Shown piece by piece: positions 2,942-20,980 of a DNA stretch of 20,980 nt. Source of the DNA: a virus (Duplodnaviria; Heunggongvirae; Uroviricota; Caudoviricetes); the IMG/VR virus record IMGVR_UViG_2695420487_000014; one strand, given 5' to 3'. Position 1 is the stretch's first letter; the number at the start of each line of letters is the position of its first letter. The translations under genes were made by a program, and so were the position numbers. The notes under the pieces were generated by a model, which ran no database searches, was not told the DNA's origin, and worked only from the letters and a program-made list of their open reading frames with translations.

Positions 2942-3021
2942 AATCCAAGAACATACTCCCTATCTATAGCAAAATCACTTTTTGAACAAAAGAATAACGT
3001 ATTTAGGTAATCATTACGAAT

Positions 3022-3603
3022 TTACCCTATAGGTGCTACTGGCCATTCAATATCCTGTGCAGTTGACGTATCAACACGGTTCAGCAATACCCGATACTTT
3101 TTCCAGGCTTCCAGCAACAAGGTTTCTTCCTCCGTTGCGATTTCCAGATCCACAGCATCCTGAAGCGGCGCTATATGCTCACTGGCTACCTGCATCAGGC
3201 TGTTTTTTGTTTCTTCCACCTCCCGGATCCGGAACAGTTTTTCTGCTTCCGTATCCTTCACCCAGGCTGTGCCGTTCCACTTCTGAAACTCCCCTTCCGG
3301 GGATAACCAGGTAACATTTTCCGGTAATGAGCCGAGTTCAGAAATAAATAACGCGTCCCCTGATGCCACGTCATAAACTGTTTTACCCCGATGGTCTTCA
3401 ACAAGATGCCACGATGACTCATCACTGTTGAAAACAGCCACGAAGCCAGCCGGAATATCTGGCGGTGCAATATCGGTACTGTTTGCTGGCAGACCTGTAT
3501 GAGGCGGAATATATGCATCACCTTCACCAATAAATTCATTAGTTCCGGCCAGCAGATTATAAATTTTTATGGTCCGTGGTTGTTCACTCATTCTGAATGC
3601 CAT
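3022..3603 (-). CDS. tfa: Tail fiber assembly protein (Tfa, lambda Tfa / P2 gpG family)
   Basis: 193-aa [43 protein letters not shown]...; start ATG overlaps the stf stop (TAATG) as in lambda stf-tfa. Confidence 0.9.
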
Positions 3604-4874
3604 TATGCAAGCCTCACAATATAGTTAAATGCGATGTTTTTGACGGTGTTTTCCGCGTTACCAGCAGCGTTAACGGTGATGGTGTGTCCGTGTGAGCCAA
3701 TCGCAACGGAGTGCGTATGAGCACCAATACCGACAGTATGTGCATGTGCGCCTGCGCTTGCAGCAGTGCCGGACAGCGAGTGGGTATGAGCACCATCTGA
3801 TGATGTCTTCCCTGCATTACGAGTCTGGCCACTACCGCTTGTTGTGCTCATAATCCCCGCGCTTAGATTTGAAATCGCGGTATAACCATTAGGGAAAATG
3901 CTCGTGTTCGTGCCACCAAATGCACCGGAACTCTTGTGTTGGTGCGCACCGGCACTATTTGCAGTCCCGCTAATACTATGGGTATGCGCCCCGGTGTTAT
4001 TCGTGGATTTGGTTCCGTAATCAAACGACGATGTGTTTTTCGTCCCCAAATCCGTACTGGATGCGCTGGCGCTGTGGGTGTGCGATTTAATGCCGTCCTG
4101 TTCCTGAGACAATACGGCACGACCACTGGCGGGTTTGCCCTTAATCGTCCAGCCACGCATATCAGGGATCACGGCTGACGGATAAGCGGCTGCAAGTTTC
4201 GGGTATGCAGATTTGTCAAAAGTCTGCCCCTGCATCAGGGCATAGCCAGACGGAACGGTATCTGATGGCCACGGGATTGGTGCGCCAGGCGGATAAAACT
4301 GCTCTGATGGCGTATAGAGTGAATAAACTGTACCGTCCGTTAACCCTTCCGGCTTATTAGCAGAATATGCTGGTGACGTATGAATCGTCACGCTGGCATT
4401 ACTGGTATAATCCCATTGAATATTTACACCAGTCGCATAATTTCCGATTGCAACGTAAATATCGTAAGTATCACCAGATGTATTGACCCAGGCAAAATTT
4501 GTAAACCCTGTCGATGTGCGCTGCCATAAAGCACCAGTAATCCCCTTCGGATTACCATTACCTGCACGCAAAACAAGTTCAGATATACCTGCCTGTTGAG
4601 GTGACCCCACGTTAAATCCCGCGCCACCAATCAACGTAATTGAAACAACAGAACTCGCCTGTGGCATGGTTACCGTTGCTAATTTGAACCAACCAGCACC
4701 ACCGCTGAATGACATTGTTGTTGAGTTAAGCGTACCAATATCTTTCGGCGTCAGTGTTATATCCGCTGAAAGCGCCTTACCATTCACCTTACGGGCAGAA
4801 GGTAGCCAGCTCATACGCGGCCTTAACGGCTTTTGGCGTTGCCGCCAGTGACTCGGAAGTGCTGTTAGTCGCAC
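3603..4874 (-). CDS. stf: Side tail fiber protein, C-terminal receptor-binding part (P2 gpH-like tip with HxH repeats); out of frame with the upstream stf segment
   Basis: ...[75 protein letters not shown]...GAHTHS...[49 protein letters not shown] is co-linear with the remembered P2 H C-terminus; frame differs from ORF 4789..6105. Confidence 0.85.
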
Positions 4875-6046
4875 TGCTGAGCTGTACTATCCCCTTTTTC
4901 GTCGTGCTCGCATCCTCAAGCGCCACGGCGGATGCAATATCCTCTGCCCGTTTTGCTGCTGTCTCGGCGCGCGTTGCCGCGGATTCCGCCGTACTTTTGC
5001 TCTGAGCTGCCGCCGTCGCACTGCCAGCTGCCTCTGTCGCCTTCGTGGATGCCGTCGTGGCGCTGCCCTTCGCTGCTGACGCCTGTCTGGTCGTCTCATC
5101 TTTTGAAGCAGACGCCGATGATGCCGATGACGCCGCCGAACTGGCTGACGATGCGGCAGCCGTTTTTGAGGATTCTGCGCTGGTTTCCGACGCTTTCGCG
5201 TTCGTTTCGGATGTCTTCGCTGCGGAAGCTGACCTCGCTGCTGCCGTGGCCTGTTCAGTGGCTTCGCCAGCCTTCGTTGTGGCTGTTGAAGCGGATGATG
5301 CGGCGCTTTCTGCCGACTTTCCGGCAGCGGTGGCACTGGCTGAGGCCTGCCCGGCATTTGTTGACGCGGCGCTGGCAGATGAGGCAGCCGCTGTTTTTGA
5401 GTCTGCTGCTGCGGAGGCACTCTGTGCTGCTGCCGTCTCAGAAGACTTAGCGTTCGTCTCGGACGTTTTTGCCGCCTTCGCGGAATTTCCTGCCGCTGTT
5501 GCCGAGGAGGCTGCACTACTGGCGCTCGAGGCTGCGCTCGTTTCTGATGATTTTGCCGCCTCTTTTGAGGCCGCCGCATCCCGGGCTGAGGTGGCAGCTT
5601 CTGACGCCTTCGTGGTCGCGGCGGATGCAGAAGTGGCTGCTGATTGTTGTGACGCTGCCGCATTCGTTTCTGACGTTTTCGCCGCAGCGGCACTGGTAGC
5701 TGCCGCGCTTTTTGAGGACTCTGCAGCAGCAGCACTTTTCGATGCTTCACTGGCCTTTGTTGATGCCGTTCCTGCGCTGGAAGATGCTGACTGAGCAGAT
5801 GATGCAGCCTGTCCGGCTGACGTGCTGGCGGCACGAGCTGAGCCTGCAGCATCGGTTGTATGAGTTGCCGCCTCACTGGCAGATGTGCTGGCATCACTGG
5901 CTGACTTCTTCGCGGCTGCCGTGTTCTGTGCCACTGCGGACGCGTTACGCGCCACCTCTTCCACCATCAGTTCAAAACGGCGCAGAGCCTCCGGACGGGC
6001 ATCATCCTCCGTCATGGCACCGAGAAAATCATTCAGCGTACCGGGT
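4789..6046 (-). pseudogene. stf: Side tail fiber protein, central Ala/Ser-rich shaft segment (lambda Stf-like), 5'-truncated at a deletion junction and 3'-frameshifted
   Basis: ...[40 protein letters not shown]...AKTSETNAAASQQSAATSA...[29 protein letters not shown] matches lambda Stf from about residue 95 onward; the first ~20 codons of the called ORF ([20 protein letters not shown]) are Nu1 DNA read out of frame. Confidence 0.8.
4890..5900 (-). repeat. GC-rich low-complexity coding repeat (Ala/Ser/Thr-rich stf shaft; reiterated AKTSETNA / SSASSA motifs)
   Basis: Reiterated GCn/TCn-rich codon blocks visible in the sequence; generates long spurious ORFs in five other frames. Confidence 0.6.
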
Positions 6047-6406
6047 CCGCGACAACACGAAAGTACAGAATGCGGTTTCCACCACTTCAGCGGAGTCTCT
6101 GGCATTCTTCAGTTCCTGTGCGTCGGCCTGCGCACGCGTAAGTCGATGGCGTTCGTACTCAATAGTCCCTGGCTGGAGATCTGCCTCGCTGGCCTGCCGC
6201 AGTTCTTCAACCTCCCGGCGCAGCTTTTCGTTCTCAATTTCAGCATCCCTTTCGGCATACCATTTTATGACGGCGGCAGAGTCATAAAGCACCTCATTAC
6301 CCTTGCCACCGCCTCGCAGAACGGGCATTCCCTGTTCCTGCCAGTTCTGAATGGTACGGATACTCGCACCGAAAATGTCAGCCAGCTGCTTTTTGTTGAC
6401 TTCCAT
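6047..6406 (-). pseudogene. nu1: Terminase small subunit Nu1, N-terminal 120 codons (winged-helix cosB-binding domain), fused out of frame to stf by deletion
   Basis: [120 protein letters not shown] matches remembered lambda Nu1 residues 1-120, then diverges (TRYAE stop). Confidence 0.85.
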
Positions 6407-6409
6407 TGT

Positions 6410-6600
6410 TCATTCCACGGACAAAAACAGAGAAAGGAAACGACAGAGGCCAAAAAGCTCGCTTTCAGCACCTGTCGCTTCCTTTCTTTTCAGAGGGTAT
6501 TTTAAATAAAAACATTAAGTTATGACGAAGAAGAACGGAAACGCCTTAAACCGGAAAATTTTCATAAATAGCGAAAACCCGCGAGGTCGCCGCCCCGTAA
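6410..6600 (-). other. cos: cos site: cosN 12-nt cohesive-end sequence (GGGCGGCGACCT on the minus strand at 6584..6595) and cosB between cosN and the nu1 start
   Basis: Minus strand reads ...GATCCGACAGGTTACG GGGCGGCGACCT CGCGGGTTTTCGCTATTTATGAAAATTTTCCGG..., matching lambda right end / cohesive end / left end from memory. Confidence 0.75.
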
Positions 6601-6794
6601 CCTGTCGGATCGCCGGAAAGGACCCGCAAAATGATAATAATTATCATCTACATGTCACAACGTGCATCTACGCCATCAAACCACGTCAAATAATCAATTA
6701 TGACGCAGGTATCGTATTAATTGATCTGCATCAACTTAACGTAAAAACAACTTCAGACAATACAAATCAGCGACACTGAATACGGGGCAACCTC

Positions 6795-6989
6795 ATGTCT
6801 ACGAAGAACAGAACCCGCAGAACAACAACCCGCAACATCCGCTTTCCTAACCAAATGATTGAACAAATTAACATCGCTCTTGAGCAAAAAGGGTCCGGGA
6901 ATTTCTCAGCCTGGGTCATTGAAGCCTGCCGTCGGAGACTAACGTCAGAAAAGAGAGCATATACATCAATTAAAAGTGATGAAGAATGA
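6795..6989 (+). CDS. ylcI: Small prophage protein, YlcI-like (DUF3950), 64 aa
   Basis: MSTKNRTRRTTTRNIRFPNQMIEQINIALEQKGSGNFSAWVIEACRRRLTSEKRAYTSIKSDEE; position between cos and bor as in DLP12. Confidence 0.6.
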   Translation: MSTKNRTRRTTTRNIRFPNQMIEQINIALEQKGSGNFSAWVIEACRRRLTSEKRAYTSIKSDEE

Positions 6990-7153
6990 ACATCCCGCGT
7001 TCTTCCCTCCGAACAGGACGATATTGTAAATTCACTTAATTACGAGGGCATTGCAGTAATTGAGTTGCAGTTTTACCACTTTCCTGACAGTGACAGACTG
7101 CGTGTTGGCTCTGTCACAGGCTAAATAGTTTGAATGATTAGCAGTTATGGTGA

Positions 7154-7360
7154 TCAGTCAACCACCAGGGAATAATCCTTCATATTATTATCGTGCTTCA
7201 CCAACGCTGCCTCAATTGCTCTGAATGCTTCCAGAGACACCTTATGTTCTATACATGCAATTACAACATCAGGGTAACTCATAGAAATGGTGCTATTAAG
7301 CATATTTTTTACACGAATCAGATCCACGGAGGGATCATCAGCAGATTGTTCTTTATTCAT
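7154..7360 (-). CDS. ybcW: Small prophage protein, YbcW-like, 68 aa
   Basis: [68 protein letters not shown]; GGAG Shine-Dalgarno upstream of the ATG at 7360. Confidence 0.55.
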
Positions 7361-7645
7361 TTTGTCGCTCCATGCGCTTGCTCTTCATCTAGCGGTTAAA
7401 ATATTACTTCAAATCTTTCTGTATGAAGATTTGAGCACGTTGGCCTTACATACATCTGTCGGTTGTATTTCCCTCCAGAATGCCAGCAGGACCGCACTTT
7501 GTTACGCAACCAATACTATTAAGTGAAAACATTCCTAATATTTGACATAAATCATCAACAAAACACAAAGAGGTCAGACCAGATTGAAACGATAAAAACG
7601 ATAATGCAAACTACGCGCCCTCGTATCACATGGAAGGTTTTACCA

Positions 7646-8056
7646 ATGGCTCAGGTTGCCATTTTTAAAGAAATATTCGATCAAGTGCGAAAAGATTTAA
7701 ACTGTGAATTGTTTTATTCTGAACTAAAACGTCACAACGTCTCACATTATATTTACTATCTAGCCACAGATAATATTCACATCGTGTTAGAAAACGATAA
7801 CACCGTGTTAATAAAAGGACTTAAAAAGGTTGTAAATGTTAAATTCTCAAGAAACACGCATCTTATAGAAACGTCCTATGATAGGTTGAAATCAAGAGAA
7901 ATCACATTTCAGCAATACAGGGAAAATCTTGCTAAAGCAGGAGTTTTCCGATGGGTTACAAATATCCATGAACATAAAAGATATTACTATACCTTTGATA
8001 ATTCATTACTATTTACTGAGAGCATTCAGAACACTACACAAATCTTTCCACGCTAA
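7646..8056 (+). CDS. ybcV: YbcV-like protein (DUF1398), 136 aa from the ATG with the best RBS (ORF is open from 7523)
   Basis: [50 protein letters not shown]...; GGAAGG Shine-Dalgarno ~10 nt upstream of the ATG at 7646; the upstream in-frame GTG/ATG starts lack an RBS. Confidence 0.6.
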
Positions 8057-8346
8057 ATCATAACGTCCGGTTTCTTCCGTGTCAGCACCGGGGCGTTGGC
8101 ATAATGCAATACGTGTACGCGCTAAACCCTGTGTGCATCGTTTTTAATTATTCCCGGACACTCCCGCAGAGAAGTTCCCCGTCAGGGCTGTGGACATAGT
8201 TAATCCGGGAATACAATGACGATTCATCGCACCTGACATACATTAATAAATATTAACAATATGAAATTTCAACTCATTGTTTAGGGTTTGTTTAATTTTC
8301 TACACATACGATTCTGCGAACTTCAAAAAGCATCGGGAATAACACC

Positions 8347-10429: not shown

Positions 10430-11512
10430 ATGAAAAAATTAACAGTGGCAATTTCTGCTGTAGCTGCATCAGTACTGATGGCGATGTCTGCTCAGGCAGC
10501 TGAAATTTATAATAAAGACAGTAACAAGCTGGATCTGTACGGGAAAGTTAATGCTAAGCACTACTTCTCCTCTAATGATGCAGATGATGGTGATACTACT
10601 TATGCCCGTCTTGGGTTCAAAGGTGAAACCCAAATCAACGATCAACTGACTGGTTTCGGTCAGTGGGAATATGAATTCAAAGGCAACCGCGCTGAATCTC
10701 AAGGTTCCTCCAAAGATAAAACCCGTCTTGCCTTCGCTGGCCTGAAATTCGGTGACTACGGCTCCATCGATTATGGCCGTAACTACGGTGTAGCATACGA
10801 TATTGGTGCATGGACCGACGTTCTGCCAGAATTCGGTGGCGATACCTGGACCCAAACAGATGTATTCATGACTGGTCGCACCACAGGTGTTGCAACTTAT
10901 CGTAACAATGACTTCTTTGGTCTGGTTGATGGTCTGAACTTTAGTGCTCAGTATCAGGGTAAAAATGACCGCACTGACGTAACTGAAGCTAATGGTGATG
11001 GTTTCGGTTTCTCCACTACTTATGAGTATGAAGGATTCGGTGTAGGTGCAACCTATGCTAAATCTGACCGCACTAATAATCAGGTTATCTACGGTAACAA
11101 CAGCCTGAATGCATCTGGTCAAAATGCTGAAGTATGGGCAGCTGGTCTGAAATATGATGCGAACAACATCTATCTGGCTACCACCTATTCTGAAACCCAG
11201 AACATGACTGTTTTTGGTAATAACCATATTGCCAACAAAGCACAAAACTTCGAAGTAGTTGCACAATATCAGTTCGACTTCGGTCTGCGTCCGTCCGTTG
11301 CTTACCTGCAATCTAAAGGAAAAGACTTGGGTGCGTGGGGTGATCAGGACCTGGTTGAATATATTGATGTAGGTGCAACCTATTACTTCAACAAAAATAT
11401 GTCCACTTTTGTTGATTACAAAATCAACCTGATTGATAAGAGCGATTTCACGAAAGCATCTGGCGTTGCTACCGATGATATCGTTGCTGTAGGTATGGTT
11501 TACCAGTTCTAA
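10430..11512 (+). CDS. nmpC: Outer membrane porin NmpC/OmpD family (OmpC paralogue), apparently intact
   Basis: [23 protein letters not shown] signal peptide, then [24 protein letters not shown]... and C-terminal ...[12 protein letters not shown] (terminal Phe beta-barrel signature); located between Q and S on the opposite strand as in DLP12. Confidence 0.9.
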
Positions 11513-13764: not shown

Positions 13765-14217
13765 TTAGTGACGCGGGTCTGTTATTATGCGAGAAGGGTT
13801 TCCGTATAAAACAAGGACCTTACTTCCTTGAGTAAATAACGGATCTTTGCCTTGAACAATGGTCATTAAATTCCCATTCTCAGTTTCGACAACATATTCC
13901 ATGCCTGTTTGTTTTGTTGCTGAAGATTCGATTGCTGCCCCGGCAATACCACCAATGACTGCACCACCAACGGCACCAACGATATTAGAACGAACTCCCC
14001 CACCAAGCGCAGAACCAGCGGTTGCCCCCACGGCAGCCCCAGCAGTCCCGCCTAACGCGGAAGTCCCACTGATATCAACCCCCCTAGCACTAATAACTGT
14101 ACCAGCGATAGTTCGATTAACCATGCCCACAGAGCCAACAGAATAACTATTTGGCGATATATTTTGTGCGCATCCAACCAACACTAAGAGTGGAGCAATT
14201 ACGAATAATCGCTTCAT
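13765..14217 (-). CDS. Outer-membrane lipoprotein with glycine-zipper domain, SlyB/Pcp-like, 150 aa
   Basis: Lipobox LVGC; central Gly/Ala zipper GGTAGAAVGATAGSALGGGVRSNIVGAVGGAVIGGIAGAAI; C-terminal ...GNLMTIVQGKDPLFTQGSKVLVLYG parallels the SlyB C-terminal beta segment; ATG overlaps the stop of the upstream lipoprotein gene (ATGA). Confidence 0.7.
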   Translation of the reverse strand: MKRLFVIAPLLVLVGCAQNISPNSYSVGSVGMVNRTIAGTVISARGVDISGTSALGGTAGAAVGATAGSALGGGVRSNIVGAVGGAVIGGIAGAAIESSATKQTGMEYVVETENGNLMTIVQGKDPLFTQGSKVLVLYGNPSRIITDPRH

Positions 14218-14774
14218 TTAGCTACCCTAACAGGAAACATTGGACGAGAAAGATCAACACTTTCTAATGCTTGCAAGAACTGCGTTATGTTGTTTTGCAC
14301 CGCGCGATTAACAGATTCGCGTGCTCGAACAATACCGTAGAATGCGTAACTGGCTGGAACAGTACCGGTAGACTCAATATCCTGCGTATATATAATATCA
14401 CCATTCGCACGGTTGATTATTTCATACCTTGCAATTGCTTTAGTTGTCATTGAAACACCAAAAGCAGGAACGTCAAGAGCCAACACTTTAACATTTAAGC
14501 TAACCGTATTTGGTGAACTATCACGAAAAATAGTCATTCGGTCGAGTGCTTCCTGCAAAGATTCACGCCAAATTGGAGTTATAGCCTCCATACCAGCAGT
14601 GATATCCCCTTTCTGCTCATCTGGACGAGCAAGTGATACCGTTAATGACTTAATTTCAGCATCTATTTTTTTCTGGCTAACTCCCACGTTAGGTGTTGAA
14701 AAATTCAATGGTGGCACACTAGCGCAACCTGTTAAAGAACCAATAATCATGGCTAATAATATTATCTTCTTCAT
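14214..14774 (-). CDS. Lipoprotein of unknown function, 186 aa (first gene of a two-lipoprotein operon)
   Basis: MKKIILLAMIIGSLTGCASVPP... with lipobox LTGC; AAGG Shine-Dalgarno 6 nt upstream; translationally coupled to the SlyB-like gene. Confidence 0.7.
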   Translation of the reverse strand: MKKIILLAMIIGSLTGCASVPPLNFSTPNVGVSQKKIDAEIKSLTVSLARPDEQKGDITAGMEAITPIWRESLQEALDRMTIFRDSSPNTVSLNVKVLALDVPAFGVSMTTKAIARYEIINRANGDIIYTQDIESTGTVPASYAFYGIVRARESVNRAVQNNITQFLQALESVDLSRPMFPVRVAK

Positions 14775-15030
14775 AAATTTACCTTATTGTTATAACCAAA
14801 GGAATTATAAAGTAAAAAAGTTCACTATCACTAGCCATTAACGACATCAATTTCAGAGAAACATGGTACTCATTTCCACAAATTTGACACAAGTCATTTT
14901 CACCTACATATTCCATCATACTTGATGCATATGTTATTGAAGCCTCTATCCTATCCGTTCATAATAGCAATAGTTACCCGGGTGATAGTACCTCTATGAT
15001 TACTCGTCTTTCTGATTGATTGGATTAAAT

Positions 15031-15222
15031 ATGCGCGCCAAAATTTATCAACTTTCGTTATGGATATTTATTTCGTTTCTAGCGATCTATGCCTTTATTA
15101 TCTATAAAGGTTCTTATATTGGAGTAGCATTGCATCAAATTGCTTGGATCATCATTATTGCCTCTGGCTTGATTGCTAGGCTAACTAAACCAAAGCAAAA
15201 ACCAATTTCGTCCAATAATTAG
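15031..15222 (+). CDS. Possible small two-helix membrane protein, ~63 aa from the ATG (ORF open from TTG at 15016)
   Basis: MRAKIYQLSLWIFISFLAIYAFIIYKGSYIGVALHQIAWIIIIASGLIARLTKPKQKPISSNN: two hydrophobic helices and a basic tail; divergent from the lipoprotein operon; weak RBS and AT-rich, so it may be a chance ORF. Confidence 0.3.
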   Translation: MRAKIYQLSLWIFISFLAIYAFIIYKGSYIGVALHQIAWIIIIASGLIARLTKPKQKPISSNN

Positions 15223-15379
15223 ACATGTATTAAAAAAATGATATTTTTATGTACATAGTCTATTGAAAATTGCCGCGATAAAATGCCAACACCCGCTTCA
15301 TCGCGGCACTCTGGCGACACTCCTTGAAAATCAGATTCGTGCTCACCTTTCCTTCCCGTTCTTCCCTGGTAGCGAACCG

Positions 15380-15827
15380 GTAATCATCCGATCTGCGTTA
15401 CCGAGTGGATGGATGAATGCCGCCGCGAACCATTCAAAACCCGCGAAGGCAGAGAAATTACGGGGCCGTGGCAGTCGCATCCCAAACGGATGTTACGGCA
15501 TAAAGCCATGATTCAGTGGCCCGTCTGGCCTTCGGATTTGCTGGTATCTATGACAAGGATGAAGCCGAGCGCATTGTCGAAAATACCGCATACACCGCAG
15601 AACGTCAGCCGGAACGCGACATTACTCCGGTTAACGATGAAACCATGCAGGAGATTAACACTCTGCTGATTGCCCTGGACAAAACATGGGATGACGACTT
15701 ATTGCCGCTCTGTTCCCAGATATTTCGCCGCGACATTCGCGCATCGTCAGAACTGACACAGGCCGAAGCAGTGAAAGCTCTTGGATTCCTGAAACAGAAA
15801 GCCACTGAGCAGAAGGTGGCAGCATGA
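15380..15827 (+). pseudogene. bet: Recombination protein Bet (lambda RecT-like), C-terminal ~150 codons only, with a 1-bp deletion frameshift near 15517
   Basis: NHPICVTEWMDECRREPFKTREGREITGPWQSHPKRMLRHKAMIQ in one frame and ARLAFGFAGIYDKDEAERIVENTAYTAERQPERDITPVNDETMQEINTLLIALDKTWDDDLLPLCSQIFRRDIRASSELTQAEAVKALGFLKQKATEQKVAA in the next, together matching remembered lambda Bet; upstream of ~15380 homology is lost. Confidence 0.85.
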
Positions 15828-15880
15828 CACCGGACATTATCCTGCAGCGTACCATCGATTGTGCTGACACTGCTGGATGA
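15824..15880 (+). pseudogene. exo: Exonuclease Exo 5' stub (first ~10 codons MTPDIILQRT, then unrelated sequence and a stop after 18 codons)
   Basis: ATG overlaps the bet stop in the lambda arrangement (GCAGCATGACACCGG); downstream sequence does not continue as exo. Confidence 0.5.
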
Positions 15881-16302
15881 ACGGGAAAGAAACCAGCAGT
15901 ACATCAAACGCCGCGACCAGGAGAACGAGGATATTGCGCTAACGGTGAGGAAACTGCGTGTTGAGCTGGAGACAGCAAAAATCAAAACTCAACGAGCAGC
16001 GTGAGTAGAAGGTGTTATCTCGGATGGAAGTAAGCGTATTGCTGAAATGGAGGCCTGGGTTGAATACACAAGAGCTGCATACGTAAGAGCAAAAGACAAG
16101 GGAGATTTGATCAGAGTTATTACCCGACAACCAACGGGATTTTACGCTTACGTACCATGTAATTAGGAATCCTTGAAGTGGCAGCCTAACTGCGGATACA
16201 CTGAAATGGCGATTTGGTAACATGTTTCGCACAAGGCTGTTACTACGCTTAAAGATAATCAGCCATGATTAAACGCTTTGTAAAAAGTAAAAGGAAATTA
16301 CA

Positions 16303-16917
16303 ATGAAAAAATCAATACTAATTTTAGGGCTTACGTTAATTGTCTCATCTCAAATACCATCGGCAATGGCAAAAAATGAATCAAGACTTTGGGTTGTTGT
16401 TGATCGAACGGAAAGACATACCTGCCCTTCAAGTAAATGTGGAGTGGCTGGGAAACTATTTTTCAGGGAAGGCGTAGATTTTCTAGAAAAAAAAGGTGAA
16501 TGGGTTCGTATAACTGAGCCATATTCAGCCTCATGTGTGGGAGGGGAAAGCGAATATATTAAAGAAGGTAATAAATCCTGCACAAGAAAAAACGGAATCG
16601 TCAATGGCAAGTTTTCAGAATGGGTTAAACTTAGTGATCTTAGCAGTGAAAGGCCATCAGATCCTGCTGAAAATGCGAGCGGAGATGATACTTTAATCAA
16701 AGGATCTGATGACTACCGTATATACAAAAAAGAGTTTTCTTCGGCAGCTAGGAAGTTAATAAACGAAGGGGTCTGCACGGAAAGCGACTTTAAGGAAATC
16801 GGAGGGTGGATGGCATCAAGCAATAAGGGGAAAAACATCTATTTCACATATTGCGGAGGAATGACGTTGTCGAACAGAATATACCTAGACGTTAAAAGTG
16901 GAAAGACTTTTAGATAA
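16303..16917 (+). CDS. Secreted protein of unknown function, 204 aa, low GC, Cys-containing
   Basis: Signal peptide MKKSILILGLTLIVSSQIPSAMA (AMA then K, SPase I type, no lipobox); 8 Cys in the mature part; N-terminal segment RLWVVVDRTERHTCPSSKCGVAGKLFFREGVDFLEKKGEWVRI is SH3b-like by eye. Confidence 0.6.
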   Translation: MKKSILILGLTLIVSSQIPSAMAKNESRLWVVVDRTERHTCPSSKCGVAGKLFFREGVDFLEKKGEWVRITEPYSASCVGGESEYIKEGNKSCTRKNGIVNGKFSEWVKLSDLSSERPSDPAENASGDDTLIKGSDDYRIYKKEFSSAARKLINEGVCTESDFKEIGGWMASSNKGKNIYFTYCGGMTLSNRIYLDVKSGKTFR

Positions 16918-16988
16918 TATGATATTACCAATGACAGTATTAATTTAATGCCTCCATAGAATTATCTCTAGGAAGTATGTATAAGAAA

Positions 16989-17025
16989 AGCCCGCACAAT
17001 GAGCTGCTGCGGGCTTTGTGTTATT
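16989..17025 (+). terminator. Probable rho-independent terminator of the 204-aa gene (8-bp stem AGCCCGCA/TGCGGGCT, then TTGTGTTATT)
   Basis: Inverted repeat plus T-rich tail ~70 nt downstream of the stop. Confidence 0.45.
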
Positions 17026-17577
17026 CGCCATATTTTATGAAGCAAATACGACACTATAGATAATTAAGCGTTGCTGGTTGTCGATTCCTCACTCACTCCT
17101 GTTGATGGCTCTCTTCTTGTATGTGCCATTGAAGGGTAATATCGAGTAAAAAGATACCGGAAGTATCCGCGCCGCCATGATTGTCTTTCTCCTAATGCAG
17201 GAAAAGCAGAATGGCTAAATCATCAGCAGAGCGCAAAGTCGATCAGAGAGCCAAGCAAGCATCATCCGGTATGCGTAAGCTGGAGCTTGTACTTGATGCT
17301 CAGGAAATTGAAATGCTGGATCGTAACTGAGCCACGCGCCGCTTCAGGCATGCGCCTTACGAGTTTGGTGAGTACATCGCGTTACTGAGCCGCCAGGATG
17401 ATGCACGTGTGCGCTAGCGTATAAAATCGATCAGCAGAAAACGTTGCGGTAAGTGCGGCGAGAGAGTTCCTGTTAATTCATGCCCGTGTAATGGTGACTC
17501 ACAATGCTGGGTGACCAAAGGCTGGCACGAAACAAAATTAATGATATAAATCTCTGTGACATGTCACGGAGGCGGCA

Positions 17578-18006
17578 ATGAAATTAGACCAGCAATATCT
17601 AAAAGATCTACTTATCGCATTCGAAAAAACTCATGGCCCTGACACGATGCTTAGTGAACTAGAGGATAATGGCTTTAATAGATATGACCAAAATTTTATT
17701 TTCCATATGCGATTATTATGCGACTACGAATTAATAGTCAGGGTTGATGGAAAACCTGGGTTCGGTCATATAATGTCCAACGAGTTAGGGGAAGGTGTTG
17801 GATATAGTTGGATCGAAGTACCACTGAGGTTGACAGCAAGAGGGCATGATTTTATTGCTGACTTGCGTCAAAAGGAGGTCTGGCAAACTATAAAAACAAA
17901 CTTTAAGGATGAGGGAATTAGTACACTAATAAGTGTTTCAAAATCACTAGCAAAAGGCTTTGCAAGGAAAAAGATAAAAGATATTACAGGAATAGATATT
18001 GAATAA
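17578..18006 (+). CDS. Cytoplasmic protein of unknown function, 142 aa, low GC (possible DUF2513-like fold)
   Basis: MKLDQQYLKDLLIAFEKTHGPDTMLSELEDNGFNRYDQNFIFHMRLLCDYELIVRVDGKPGFGHIMSNELGEGVGYSWIEVPLRLTARGHDFIADLRQKEVWQTIK...; no signal peptide; GGAGG Shine-Dalgarno upstream of the ATG. Confidence 0.6.
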   Translation: MKLDQQYLKDLLIAFEKTHGPDTMLSELEDNGFNRYDQNFIFHMRLLCDYELIVRVDGKPGFGHIMSNELGEGVGYSWIEVPLRLTARGHDFIADLRQKEVWQTIKTNFKDEGISTLISVSKSLAKGFARKKIKDITGIDIE

Positions 18007-18088
18007 TTCTTAGCATCAGCAACTACTGCCTTTGGTGGAAATTATATCTGAACTCGCTACGGCGAGTTTTGTTTTATGGAGATGATAA

Positions 18089-18256
18089 ATGCACTTCCGA
18101 GTCACAGGTGAATGGAATGGAGAACCATTCAACAGAGTTATCGAAGCAGAGAACATCAATGACTGCTATGACCACTGGATGATATGGGCGCAGATAGCAC
18201 ATGCAGACATAACCAATATTCGAATTGAAGAACTGAAAGAACACCAAGCCGCCTGA
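18089..18256 (+). CDS. Small 55-aa ORF immediately upstream of xis (position of lambda orf55)
   Basis: MHFRVTGEWNGEPFNRVIEAENINDCYDHWMIWAQIAHADITNIRIEELKEHQAA; GGAG Shine-Dalgarno 8 nt upstream; below the ORF-track size cutoff. Confidence 0.45.
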   Translation: MHFRVTGEWNGEPFNRVIEAENINDCYDHWMIWAQIAHADITNIRIEELKEHQAA

Positions 18257-18271
18257 TGGCGGTTTTTTCTT
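18248..18271 (+). terminator. Terminator-like hairpin GCCGCC-TGAT-GGCGG followed by TTTTTTCTT, overlapping the stop of the 55-aa ORF, ~25 nt upstream of xis
   Basis: GC stem plus T-run on the plus strand. Confidence 0.4.
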
Positions 18272-18295
18272 GCGTGTAATTGCGGAGACTTTGCG

Positions 18296-18514
18296 ATGTA
18301 CTTGACACTTCAGGAGTGGAACGCTCGCCAGCGACGCCCAAGAAGCCTTGAAACAGTTCGTCGATGGGTGCGCGAATGCAGGATATTCCCTCCTCCGGTT
18401 AAGGATGGAAGAGAATATCTGTTCCACGAATCAGCGGTAAAGGTTGACTTAAATCGACCAGTAACAGGTAGCCTTTTGAAGAGGATCAGAAATGGGAAGA
18501 AGGCGAAGTCATGA
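18296..18514 (+). CDS. xis: Excisionase Xis (lambda type), 72 aa
   Basis: MYLTLQEWNARQRRPRSLETVRRWVRECRIFPPPVKDGREYLFHESAVKVDLNRPVTGSLLKRIRNGKKAKS matches lambda Xis; 3' end overlaps the int start. Confidence 0.9.
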   Translation: MYLTLQEWNARQRRPRSLETVRRWVRECRIFPPPVKDGREYLFHESAVKVDLNRPVTGSLLKRIRNGKKAKS

Positions 18515-19562
18515 GCGCCGGGATTTACCCCCTAACCTTTATATAAGAAACAATGGATATTACTGCTACAGGGACCCAAGGACGGGTAAAGAGTTTGGAT
18601 TAGGCCGAGACAGGCGAATCGCAATCACTGAAGCTATACAGGCCAACATTGAGTTATTTTCAGGACACAAACACAAGCCTCTGACAGCGAGAATCAACAG
18701 TGATAATTCCGTTACGTTACATTCATGGCTTGATCGCTACGAAAAAATCCTGGCCAGCAGAGGAATCAAGCAGAAGACACTCATAAATTACATGAGCAAA
18801 ATTAAAGCAATAAGGAGGGGTCTGCCTGATGCTCCACTTGAAGACATCACCACAAAAGAAATTGCGGCAATGCTCAATGGATACATAGACGAGGGAAAGG
18901 CGGCATCAGCCAAGTTAATCAGATCAACACTGAGCGATGCATTCCGAGAGGCTATGGCTGAAGGCCATATAACAACAAACCCGGTCGCAGCCACTCGCGC
19001 TGCAAAATCAGAGGTAAGGAGATCAAGACTTACGGCTGACGAATACCTGAAAATTTATCAAGCAGCAGAATCATCACCATGTTGGCTTAGACTTGCAATG
19101 GAACTGGCTGTTGTTACCGGGCAGCGAGTTGGTGATTTATGCGAAATGAAGTGGTCTGATATCGTAGATGGATATCTTTATGTCGAGCAAAGCAAAACAG
19201 GCGTAAAAATTGCCATCCCAACAACATTGCATGTTGATGCTCTCGGGATATCAATGAAGGAAACACTTGATAAATGCAAAAAGATTCTTGGCGGAGAAAC
19301 CATAATTGCATCTACTCGTCGTGAACCGCTTTCATCCGGCACAGTATCAAGGTATTTTATGCGCGCACGAAAAGCATCAGGTCTCTCCTTCGAAGGGGAT
19401 CCGCCAACCTTTCACGAGTTGCGCAGTTTGTCTGCAAGACTCTATGAGAAGCAGATAAGCGATAAATTTGCTCAACATCTTCTCGGGCATAAGTCGGACA
19501 CCATGGCATCACAGTATCGTGATGACAGAGGCAGGGAGTGGGACAAAATTGAAATCAAATAA
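18492..19562 (+). CDS. int: Site-specific tyrosine recombinase Int (lambda integrase), 356 aa
   Basis: MGRRRSHERRDLPPNLYIRNNGYYCYRDPRTGKEFGLGRDRRIAITEAIQANIELFSGHKHKPLTARINSDNSVTLHSWLDRYEKILASRGIKQ...HELRSLSARLYEKQISDKFAQHLLGHKSDTMASQYRDDRGREWDKIEIK matches lambda Int nearly residue for residue, including the catalytic R-H-R-Y context. Confidence 0.95.
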   Translation: MGRRRSHERRDLPPNLYIRNNGYYCYRDPRTGKEFGLGRDRRIAITEAIQANIELFSGHKHKPLTARINSDNSVTLHSWLDRYEKILASRGIKQKTLINYMSKIKAIRRGLPDAPLEDITTKEIAAMLNGYIDEGKAASAKLIRSTLSDAFREAMAEGHITTNPVAATRAAKSEVRRSRLTADEYLKIYQAAESSPCWLRLAMELAVVTGQRVGDLCEMKWSDIVDGYLYVEQSKTGVKIAIPTTLHVDALGISMKETLDKCKKILGGETIIASTRREPLSSGTVSRYFMRARKASGLSFEGDPPTFHELRSLSARLYEKQISDKFAQHLLGHKSDTMASQYRDDRGREWDKIEIK

Positions 19563-19660
19563 TGATTTTATTTTGACTGATAGTGACCTGTTCGTTGCAA
19601 CAAATTGATAAGCAATGCTTTTTTATAATGCCAACTTAGTATAAAAAAGCAGGCTTCAAC
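19563..19660. other. attL: attL prophage-host junction: lambda P' arm (19563..19635), 15-bp core TTAGTATAAAAAAGC (19636..19650; reverse complement of GCTTTTTTATACTAA) and host B arm (AGGCTTCA)
   Basis: Sequence AATGATTTTATTTTGACTGATAGTGACCTGTTCGTTGCAACAAATTGATAAGCAATGCTTTTTTATAATGCCAAC TTAGTATAAAAAAGC AGGCTTCA matches lambda attP P' arm plus core, then the E. coli attB arm. Confidence 0.8.
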
Positions 19661-19696
19661 GGATTCATTTTTCTATTTCATAGCCCGGAGCAACCT

Positions 19697-20980
19697 GTGA
19701 ACACATTTTCAGTTTCCCGTCTGGCGCTGGCATTGGCTTTTGGCGTGACGCTGACCGCCTGTAGCTCAACCCCGCCCGATCAACGTCCTTCTGATCAAAC
19801 CGCGCCTGGTACCTCTTCTCGCCCGATTCTGTCGGCAAAAGAAGCGCAGAATTTCGATGCTCAACACTATTTTGCATCCCTGACACCAGGTGCTGCAGCG
19901 TGGAATCCTTCCCCGATTACCCTGCCTGCGCAACCTGACTTTGTTGTCGGCCCGGCGGGCACTCAAGGTGTAACGCATACCACGATTCAGGCGGCGGTAG
20001 ATGCGGCAATTATCAAGCGTACCAACAAGCGCCAGTATATTGCCGTGATGCCTGGTGAGTATCAGGGAACGGTATATGTCCCTGCCGCTCCGGGTGGAAT
20101 TACTCTGTACGGTACAGGTGAAAAACCGATTGATGTGAAGATTGGGCTTTCCCTTGATGGTGGCATGAGCCCTGCCGACTGGCGTCACGACGTCAACCCG
20201 CGCGGCAAATATATGCCAGGTAAACCAGCGTGGTATATGTACGATAGCTGCCAGAGCAAACGCAGCGACAGTATCGGTGTTCTCTGCTCTGCGGTCTTCT
20301 GGTCACAAAACAATGGCCTGCAACTGCAAAATCTGACCATCGAAAACACGCTGGGCGATAGCGTAGATGCAGGTAACCATCCGGCGGTGGCACTGCGTAC
20401 TGATGGTGACCAGGTACAGATTAACAACGTTAACATTCTCGGTCGTCAGAACACCTTCTTTGTCACCAACAGCGGTGTGCAGAACCGTCTGGAAACAAAT
20501 CGTCAGCCGCGTACGCTGGTGACCAACAGCTACATTGAAGGGGATGTGGATATCGTTTCTGGTCGCGGCGCAGTGGTGTTCGATAACACCGAATTCCGCG
20601 TGGTGAACTCACGTACTCAGCAAGAAGCGTATGTGTTTGCACCGGCTACGCTGTCCAACATTTACTACGGTTTCCTCGCCGTAAACAGCCGTTTCAATGC
20701 TTTCGGTGATGGTGTGGCGCAACTGGGCCGCTCGCTGGATGTTGATGCCAATACCAACGGTCAGGTGGTGATCCGTGATAGCGCCATCAACGAAGGTTTT
20801 AACACGGCTAAACCGTGGGCCGATGCGGTGATCTCTAATCGTCCGTTTGCGGGTAATACCGGCAGCGTAGATGATAACGACGAAATACAGCGCAATCTGA
20901 ATGACACTAACTACAACCGCATGTGGGAATACAATAACCGCGGCGTGGGTAGTAAAGTGGTTGCAGAGGCGAAGAAGTAA
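19697..20980 (+). CDS. ybhC: Host outer-membrane lipoprotein YbhC (pectinesterase-like / acyl-CoA thioesterase), 427 aa, complete
   Basis: GTG start with GGAG Shine-Dalgarno; lipobox LTAC; MNTFSVSRLALALAFGVTLTACSSTPPDQRPSDQTAPGTSS... matches E. coli YbhC, the gene that flanks attB-lambda on the gal side. Confidence 0.9.
   Translation: MNTFSVSRLALALAFGVTLTACSSTPPDQRPSDQTAPGTSSRPILSAKEAQNFDAQHYFASLTPGAAAWNPSPITLPAQPDFVVGPAGTQGVTHTTIQAAVDAAIIKRTNKRQYIAVMPGEYQGTVYVPAAPGGITLYGTGEKPIDVKIGLSLDGGMSPADWRHDVNPRGKYMPGKPAWYMYDSCQSKRSDSIGVLCSAVFWSQNNGLQLQNLTIENTLGDSVDAGNHPAVALRTDGDQVQINNVNILGRQNTFFVTNSGVQNRLETNRQPRTLVTNSYIEGDVDIVSGRGAVVFDNTEFRVVNSRTQQEAYVFAPATLSNIYYGFLAVNSRFNAFGDGVAQLGRSLDVDANTNGQVVIRDSAINEGFNTAKPWADAVISNRPFAGNTGSVDDNDEIQRNLNDTNYNRMWEYNNRGVGSKVVAEAKK

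Follow-up and report, generated by a model that had tools for sequence, protein, structure and literature searches.

Two AT-rich cargo genes in the exo-xis accessory block of a decayed lambdoid prophage of Escherichia coli

The DNA analysed here (IMG/VR virus record IMGVR_UViG_2695420487_000014; 20,980 nucleotides (nt), referred to in its full length as the window) consists of Escherichia coli chromosome together with a defective lambdoid prophage at lambda attB, and its plus strand runs in the direction of lambda pL transcription. Between a remnant of exo and the xis gene, the prophage carries one gene for a 204-amino acid (aa) exported protein and one for a 142-aa protein of the DUF2513 family. 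Our preferred reading, to which we give a probability of roughly 55%, takes the region from ~16.0 to 18.04 kb for a mosaic of accessory DNA in which two independent cassettes, with the roles proposed for them below, are separated by gene debris. An earlier note, made from the sequence, had described both open reading frames (ORFs) as accessory cargo in the variable int-proximal part of the exo-xis region, and this placement held: the genes are foreign and AT-rich, lambda homology resumes only at 18041, and strain EC416 shows the fuller gene order of the region. Both ORFs were intact (Table 1) and, as the note had also stated, each is preceded by a ribosome-binding site (RBS), AAGGA 9 nt 5' of the ATG of the 204-aa gene and GGAGG 6 nt 5' of that of the 142-aa gene. 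Their GC contents are 39.2% and 36.1%, respectively, compared to 45.0% for the window and 45-53% for the neighbouring genes.

Table 1. Features of the exo-xis region in the window (positions are those of the whole stretch).
Feature	Position	Strand	Remarks
Exo stub, first 10 codons of lambda-type exonuclease	15824..15853	+	blastn versus EC416 (L029); L029 Exo begins MTPDIILQRT
Ead/Ea22-like fragment, remnant of the last conserved exo-xis gene	15861..16004	+	Pfam Ead_Ea22, E 2.6e-11
204-aa exported protein, WP_000748284.1	16303..16917	+	
Signal peptide, residues 1-23	16303-16371		
SH3b domain with Cys-bearing insert, residues ~27-110	16381-16632		
Uncharacterised C-terminal domain, residues ~128-204	16684-16914		
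Terminator-like GC hairpin, T tracts on both strands; closes the 204-aa gene unit	16989..17025	.	dG -19.5 kcal/mol, z -2.8
Internal UmuD-like fragment, debris	17071..17136	+	RefSeq 'DNA repair protein, incomplete'
Pseudogene of the 112-aa RHH-like/Zn-ribbon 'transcriptional regulator'	17211..17549	+	annotated with internal stop
Perfect 12-bp palindrome GTGACATGTCAC, candidate operator	17556..17567	.	single copy in the window
142-aa DUF2513 protein, WP_000762730.1	17578..18006	+	
Terminator-like hairpin and T run 3' of DUF2513	18050..18078	+	hairpin at 18050-18069; equivalent hairpin 3' of DUF2513 in other genera
lambda orf55 homologue, right border of the foreign block	18089..18256	+	phrog_676, E 1.7e-39
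Terminator-like hairpin 3' of orf55	18246-18265		
xis (18296-18514) and int (18492-19562)	18296..19562	+	then host ybhC, i.e. prophage end at lambda attB

From 15200 to 19700 the window is 100% identical to strain SCPM-O-B-12142, in which the element is located between bioA/ybhB and ybhC. Within 15260-15853 a minus-strand ren fragment directly adjoins a plus-strand RecT/bet fragment, indicating that the immunity region (cI, N and pL) has been deleted. Erosion is further evident from copies of IS1 inside the tail genes and from the truncation of bet, exo and ea22. The exo stub named in the earlier note is real: a 1.7-kb deletion relative to EC416 fuses codon 10 of exo to the middle of the Ead/Ea22-like fragment, which RefSeq labels a frameshifted partial ead/Ea22-like gene. 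By blastn, positions 15200-15853 of the window correspond to 3001-3655 of the EC416 locus (L029) and positions 15851-18600 to 5356-8105, and the exo-to-ea22 junction at 15851-15853 is marked by a 3-bp microhomology (ACC).

Both EC416 and the isolated, complete phage Chlobot (46.5 kb) have the gene order exo, orf60a, orf63, orf61, orf73 (TraR/DksA-like), an N-terminal ea22 fragment, the block itself (204-aa gene, UmuD fragment, 112-codon gene and DUF2513 gene), orf55, xis and int. Since lambda homology restarts only at 18041, ahead of orf55, and continues at 96.7% identity, the block stands in for the 3' part of ea22 and for ea8.5. According to PMC8614690, the gene set of the exo-xis region after ea22 varies in number and kind and is transcribed early from pL. 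The 660 bp between the two cargo genes are no empty spacer: they contain the UmuD-like fragment, which is 87-91% identical to umuD-like genes of phages D6 and PhiR41_1, and a 112-codon pseudogene. An Rfam scan of 15000-19700 detected no non-coding RNA.

The 204-aa protein is made up of a signal peptide, an SH3b domain, a conserved RPxDP linker and an uncharacterised C-terminal domain. Its signal peptide reads MKK, SILILGLTLIVSS and QIPSAMA, followed by K, giving a basic n-region, a hydrophobic h-region and an AxA motif at -3/-1. The AlphaFold model has a predicted local distance difference test score (pLDDT) of 90, with low confidence confined to the unstructured residues 1-23, and homologues bear an equivalent signal peptide or a lipobox. 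Judged from these sequence features, the protein is exported by Sec into the periplasm. It had been described as secreted and rich in Cys, with eight of these residues; export was borne out by the signal peptide, while the count was found to be six (positions 41, 46, 78, 93, 158 and 184), each at least 90% conserved. Two homologues with a shorter SH3b domain (P0080 and P0081) lack an insert of ~20 residues (78-97, about C78 to N97) and lose C41, C46, C78 and C93 together; C158 and C184 are invariant. The pattern, in which Cys are lost in pairs from homologues without the insert, fits three disulfides formed in the periplasm, with 41-46, 78-93 and 158-184 as the predicted pairs. The SH3b-like segment suggested for the N terminus likewise proved to have the SH3b beta-barrel fold in the model. 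By sequence, 36 of 39 homologues match SH3_3 (PF08239) at E <= 0.1 (best E 5.9e-8), and one relative scores 30.8 bits.

The C-terminal domain is predicted to consist of two main helices, a short N-terminal turn and three strands, and it carries the motifs SDDY, GGW, YFTYCGG and NRIYL. It returned no Pfam match and no genuine match in the PDB. Profile matches in the PDB to de-novo designed TIM barrels (E ~1e-8) were rejected, since the score sums four repeats, each with E > 20, on a low-complexity helix. A profile search with this domain recovered 537 cluster representatives in four arrangements: alone after a signal peptide or lipobox (~100 aa), after SH3b (~200 aa), after an SH3b that is itself preceded by a zinc ribbon in the cytoplasm and a membrane segment (~330 aa), and, in a single case, after ankyrin repeats. 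All four are consistent with an extracytoplasmic location, and the domain therefore always appears to be extracytoplasmic.

Pseudomonas and Aeromonas have close homologues of the 204-aa protein, of equal length and 60-69% identical. The Pseudomonas gene is found ~80 bp 3' of a tyrosine integrase in small islands (L003, 6402-12411; L016-L019) that also encode proteins of KilA-N-like and DUF6971-like type and contain an ORF of 336 aa; the latter is capsid-like by eye alone, with no match in Pfam, NCBIfam or PADLOC, and these islands may be phage-satellite-like elements. The Aeromonas homologue resides inside a prophage, between the antiterminator and the holin, and more distant members are found in plain chromosomal contexts or adjoining integrases. 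When the 121 ORFs that neighbour it in 33 genomes were scanned with Pfam, no recurrent partner of the SH3b/C-terminal-domain family emerged. In our reading the gene moves on its own as cargo between prophages and integrase-linked islands of gamma-proteobacteria.

The suggestion that the 142-aa protein is winged-helix or DUF2513-like proved apt on both counts. Pfam DUF2513 (PF10711) matches residues 2-115 over the full profile (1-100 of 100) with 42.9 bits and E 6.8e-11, above the gathering cut-off of 29.6 bits, and PF10711 was found in all listed homologues except two short fragments (P0193 and P0195). The model (pLDDT 92) comprises a winged helix followed by three helices; its topology, H1-S1-H2-H3-S2-wing-S3, matches the winged helix-turn-helix (wHTH) fold and superposes on solved wHTH proteins (MarR/PadR-like). 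An acidic winged-helix domain (residues 1-110) precedes a basic, amphipathic C-terminal helix (residues 114-137). The acidity of the former is a family-wide property, with a median net charge of -5, and residues 59-80 form a long, hypervariable wing. On this model, DUF2513 is a small cytoplasmic winged-helix protein, probably dimeric via its C-terminal helix. Its 490 relatives are single-domain proteins of ~135-150 aa, mostly from Enterobacterales, and none is functionally named.

Phage DNA was the only setting in which DUF2513 genes were found, and there they always run in the direction of the lytic operon around them. Their slots are of three kinds: the distal early-left operon before xis/int (E. 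coli, Serratia), directly 5' of the small terminase gene terS (Cronobacter, a Klebsiella phage) and a nin-like region (Serratia). Given this co-orientation, the three slots and a small regulator-like partner, DUF2513 looks more like an early/late phage accessory regulator than a lysogen moron. In the Serratia prophage (L026/L027, 4064-5417), a 305-aa ORF ends 20 bp before DUF2513 and the pair is kept in three contigs; the two may form a separate two-gene unit of that DUF2513 sub-clade.

The partner in question is the 112-aa gene, which is dead in the window owing to two in-frame stops (TGA at 17328-17330 and TAG at 17415-17417). The N-terminal segment of its product weakly resembles the LexA-regulated ribbon-helix-helix (RHH) protein YbfE (E 0.04), and its C terminus bears a Cys cluster. 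An intact ORF is present in phages Chlobot and TL-2011b and in Cronobacter prophages. Among 38 distinct non-E. coli viral loci the 112-aa gene lies directly 5' of DUF2513 in 16, and it recurs with three different downstream neighbours. In the Chlobot record (L068, ~17149-17505), the 112-aa ORF is annotated as a mere 46-aa 'transcriptional regulator', which a dubious 105-aa 'UmuD-like protein' overlaps.

Between the pseudogene stop codon and the RBS of DUF2513, which it abuts, lies the palindrome GTGACATGTCAC, at -22 to -11 relative to the ATG. Together with the 3' end of the preceding ORF it is conserved in E. coli, Cronobacter and Serratia, and among 80 viral contigs it is nearly invariant in ten distinct sequence contexts with freely differing flanks. 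A role as an autoregulatory operator of DUF2513 was considered and is weakened by phage TL-2011b, which has the 112-aa gene and the palindrome just 5' of terS without DUF2513, as well as by two DUF2513 loci (L118 and L141) in which the partner gene is present and the palindrome absent. The TL-2011b arrangement argues that the palindrome belongs with the upstream 112-aa gene. An extended -10 promoter (TGnTATAAA) before the palindrome in E. coli and Cronobacter was not adopted, since it is absent from Serratia, Yersinia-type loci and TL-2011b and runs into the stop codon of the gene before it. In every genus checked, a terminator lies 3' of DUF2513. The second cassette would thereby comprise the 112-aa gene, the 12-bp palindrome, the DUF2513 gene and a terminator as a portable two-gene unit, of whose two genes only DUF2513 survives in the window. 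IS1 has hit the block independently at different points in different strains: in ATCC 8739 (L150, 2779-3476) it is located upstream of the 204-aa gene, and in FMU073332 (L012, 4246-4943) immediately 5' of the DUF2513 RBS, with the palindrome and everything leftward removed.

The terminator that the earlier note had placed after the 204-aa gene was recovered as a T-tract hairpin (Table 1). It also reads as a minus-strand terminator and is thus a credible bidirectional one. No plus-strand sigma-70 promoter matching at 9 or more of 12 positions was found upstream of either gene; the only candidates are weak, TTGAAG-18-TACACT at 16173 and TGnTAACAT at 16215. In an intact phage pL would drive both cassettes, and in this remnant pL is gone. 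Both genes share features expected of morons, namely a terminator of their own (the hairpin that closes the 204-aa gene unit and that 3' of DUF2513) and a deviating composition combined with presence or absence among related phages, lambda having other genes between ea22 and orf55-xis-int.

Selection on the two genes was assessed among E. coli lineages. The 204-aa gene is present in 132 and DUF2513 in 183 of 5426 complete E. coli genomes. All sampled alleles were intact, 15 of 15 for the 204-aa gene and 14 of 14 for DUF2513, with ratios of nonsynonymous to synonymous polymorphism (pN/pS) of 0.16 and 0.44, respectively. Both genes are under purifying selection. The proteins belong to PHROG families 8310 (204-aa protein) and 585 (DUF2513), both of unknown function. 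Homology to lambda proteins of the ea region was sought and not found: by lambda DNA comparison and Pfam, neither gene is related to Ea22, Ea8.5, Orf60a, Orf61, Orf63 or Orf73. We read the 204-aa gene as genuine cargo that is under selection, is carried on its own and encodes a periplasmic protein.

The two cassettes appear to be independent, since their genome counts differ and DUF2513 occurs at some loci without the 204-aa gene. An obligate link was rejected, there being a single independent adjacency outside the E. coli phage lineage. In Marinobacter litoralis (L060, 5947-10352), the gene of a 106-aa lipoprotein that consists of the C-terminal domain alone lies 80 bp ahead of a DUF2513 gene (Pfam 7.9e-24), and the islet continues with a 334-aa ORF and then EEP, PIN7 and NERD nuclease-type proteins, beside the urease operon. 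No other adjacency of the two families was detected among ~45 C-terminal-domain loci and ~40 DUF2513 loci, and we tentatively treat the Marinobacter case as a coincidence within accessory islands.

With respect to function, the SH3b domain would most likely dock the 204-aa protein on peptidoglycan, as its modelled fold implies, and the disulfide-containing C-terminal domain of ~80 aa, which represents a widespread uncurated family, would carry the activity. We infer that the protein most likely acts in the envelope on behalf of the carrier cell, for example in exclusion of or protection against invaders that attack the cell wall, and a moron or lysogenic-conversion role is our best guess for this protein. 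DUF2513 and its partner, in turn, most likely bind nucleic acid and would tune phage gene expression or development, like other exo-xis genes; DUF2513 does not look like a defence effector.

Several observations weigh against parts of this picture. With pL lost and no evident promoter nearby, both genes may be silent in this host. Constraint on DUF2513 is weaker than that on the 204-aa gene (pN/pS 0.44 versus 0.16), and its partner gene is dead here. The palindrome may not be a DUF2513 site, and the acidic winged-helix domain means that a protein-binding role fits as well as a DNA-binding one. On SH3_3, the window protein itself reaches 16.1 bits (E 0.013), below the 27-bit gathering cut-off, and peptidoglycan binding is suggested only by the predicted fold and periplasmic location. 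Finally, the literature on DUF2513, PF10711, the WP accessions and the PHROG numbers contained nothing relevant; a single unrelated paper names DUF2513 once in passing.

The earlier note had seen both genes as candidate anti-phage defence or lysogenic-conversion factors; in this view they would be morons that the prophage expresses in its repressed state. PADLOC-DB 2.0 matched neither cargo protein at E <= 1. In a run with ten proteins, it matched neither the 112-aa partner nor the homologues from Marinobacter at E <= 0.01, and weak matches were confined to two neighbours at other loci, the Serratia 305-aa ORF (TIR, E 1e-4) and the Marinobacter NERD protein (PglW). That Serratia neighbour of DUF2513, the PIN7 and NERD proteins beside the Marinobacter pair, and the genes found near members of the C-terminal-domain family (two of TIR type, CAP12/PCTIR, one McrBC and one SUKH immunity-type gene) would agree with defence, the TIR-like case in Serratia and the neighbours of the C-terminal-domain family being circumstantial. 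Low GC, terminator-bounded units, accessory slots adjoining integrases and the integrity of both genes in a prophage stripped of pL, N, cI and most of exo point the same way. However, a convincing upstream sigma-70 promoter and a conserved effector partner were not found, and DUF2513 is always co-oriented in lytic operons (distal pL operon, nin-like region, before terS), so that we regard this explanation for both genes together as unlikely. Less probable again is that the 204-aa protein is an orphan periplasmic immunity protein or inhibitor directed against a cell-wall-degrading attacker, such as an amidase delivered by a type VI secretion system or as a bacteriocin, or a virion-borne lysin of a superinfecting phage. 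The logic would be comparable to that of T4 Sp or of acquired immunity-gene islands, and it accommodates an exported protein with an SH3b targeting module, the existence of stand-alone C-terminal-domain lipoproteins of ~100 aa, the repeated location of the gene directly 3' of tyrosine recombinases and strong purifying selection. The absence of a cognate toxin or hydrolase neighbour in 33 genome loci and the plain chromosomal contexts of some family members argue otherwise, and a SUKH/SMI1_KNR4 immunity-type gene near one stand-alone C-terminal-domain gene is one case only.

Decay of the prophage raises the question of whether both genes are functionless passengers in this host. Heavy erosion (IS1, truncated bet, exo and ea22, the UmuD fragment and a partner with two nonsense codons) and the loss of pL with no evident local promoter are what such leftovers would show, and for short ORFs chance survival is plausible. 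Against this, all sampled alleles are intact with the pN/pS values given above, the block is present on the isolated complete lambda-like phage Chlobot, and both families are conserved across genera, which makes this account very improbable. At the opposite end stands a far-reaching proposal, to which we attach a small likelihood: that the C-terminal domain defines a new extracytoplasmic module family, spread by mobile elements, for single-gene envelope protection (superinfection exclusion or immunity to cell-wall-degrading effectors), and that the RHH/Zn-ribbon protein and DUF2513 form a new portable two-protein temperate-phage switch acting via GTGACATGTCAC. The evidence is best accommodated by a mosaic accessory block of two independent cassettes separated by gene debris.

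Understood as such a block, the segment holds what is ordinary for its location, namely swappable accessory genes of two families that are uncharacterised but already catalogued (PHROG 8310 and DUF2513/PHROG 585). Genes that influence the lysis-lysogeny decision or the physiology of the host are known to be exchanged at the int-proximal end of the early-left operon of lambdoid phages, and cataloguing cargo at this site is useful but routine. New here are the domain make-up of the exported protein, an uncurated family of extracytoplasmic domains and, around DUF2513, a two-gene cassette that includes a palindrome. Annotation gains accordingly: a 204-aa 'hypothetical protein' becomes an exported protein with SH3b and, at its C terminus, an uncurated domain with hundreds of relatives, and DUF2513 becomes a winged-helix protein whose usual companions are a conserved palindrome and the 112-aa RHH-like/Zn-ribbon gene. 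The complete block, including an intact partner gene, is present in Chlobot, which makes this phage a direct genetic system for both cassettes.

Elsewhere in the prophage, positions 10430-11512 (from L001, 11231-12313) hold an OmpC/NmpC-type porin gene, and bor is also present, like in DLP12-like elements. An AraC-family regulator and transposase fragments lie close to the ybhB end. Another cargo pair of the same prophage is located at 13765-14774 on the minus strand, where two overlapping AT-rich, function-unassigned ORFs lie between nin-type genes and the ren fragment; one encodes a 186-aa predicted lipoprotein (beginning MKKIILLAMIIGSLTGC), which had no match in Pfam or PADLOC, and the other a 150-aa protein, WP_000825400.1.

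The closest positional counterparts of the cargo genes are the int-proximal exo-xis genes, among them lambda ea8.5 and orf55 and the phi24B gene gp05 with its wHTH domain, which occupy the same slot between ea22 and xis. The variable exo-xis genes are non-essential, small and read from pL, and PMC8614690 describes them as variable in number and kind; one of them, orf55, is found in this prophage. Among the exo-xis proteins covered in the passages of PMC8614690 consulted, none is exported, unlike the 204-aa protein. DUF2513, unlike the exo-xis genes, is also found before terS and in nin-like regions. Its fold recalls MarR/PadR/HxlR-type regulators, STIV F93 and plasmid TubR, yet sequence identity to these is only 8-21% and the Foldseek E value only ~0.1, and the DUF2513 domain is acidic with a long, hypervariable wing. 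The 204-aa protein resembles SH3b cell-wall-binding proteins such as lysostaphin, phage endolysins and NlpC/P60 peptidases in that its homologues score on SH3_3, and differs from them in having no catalytic domain, a Cys-bearing insert of ~20 residues and an uncurated partner domain of ~80 aa. Homology links the 204-aa gene to none of the envelope morons compared (lambda Bor and Lom, T4 Sp, and Cor of phi80 and N15), one of which, bor, this prophage carries elsewhere. What it shares with the envelope morons is the form in which they are borne: a small exported or lipid-anchored protein encoded by a prophage, in an accessory slot, with deviating GC content and a terminator of its own.

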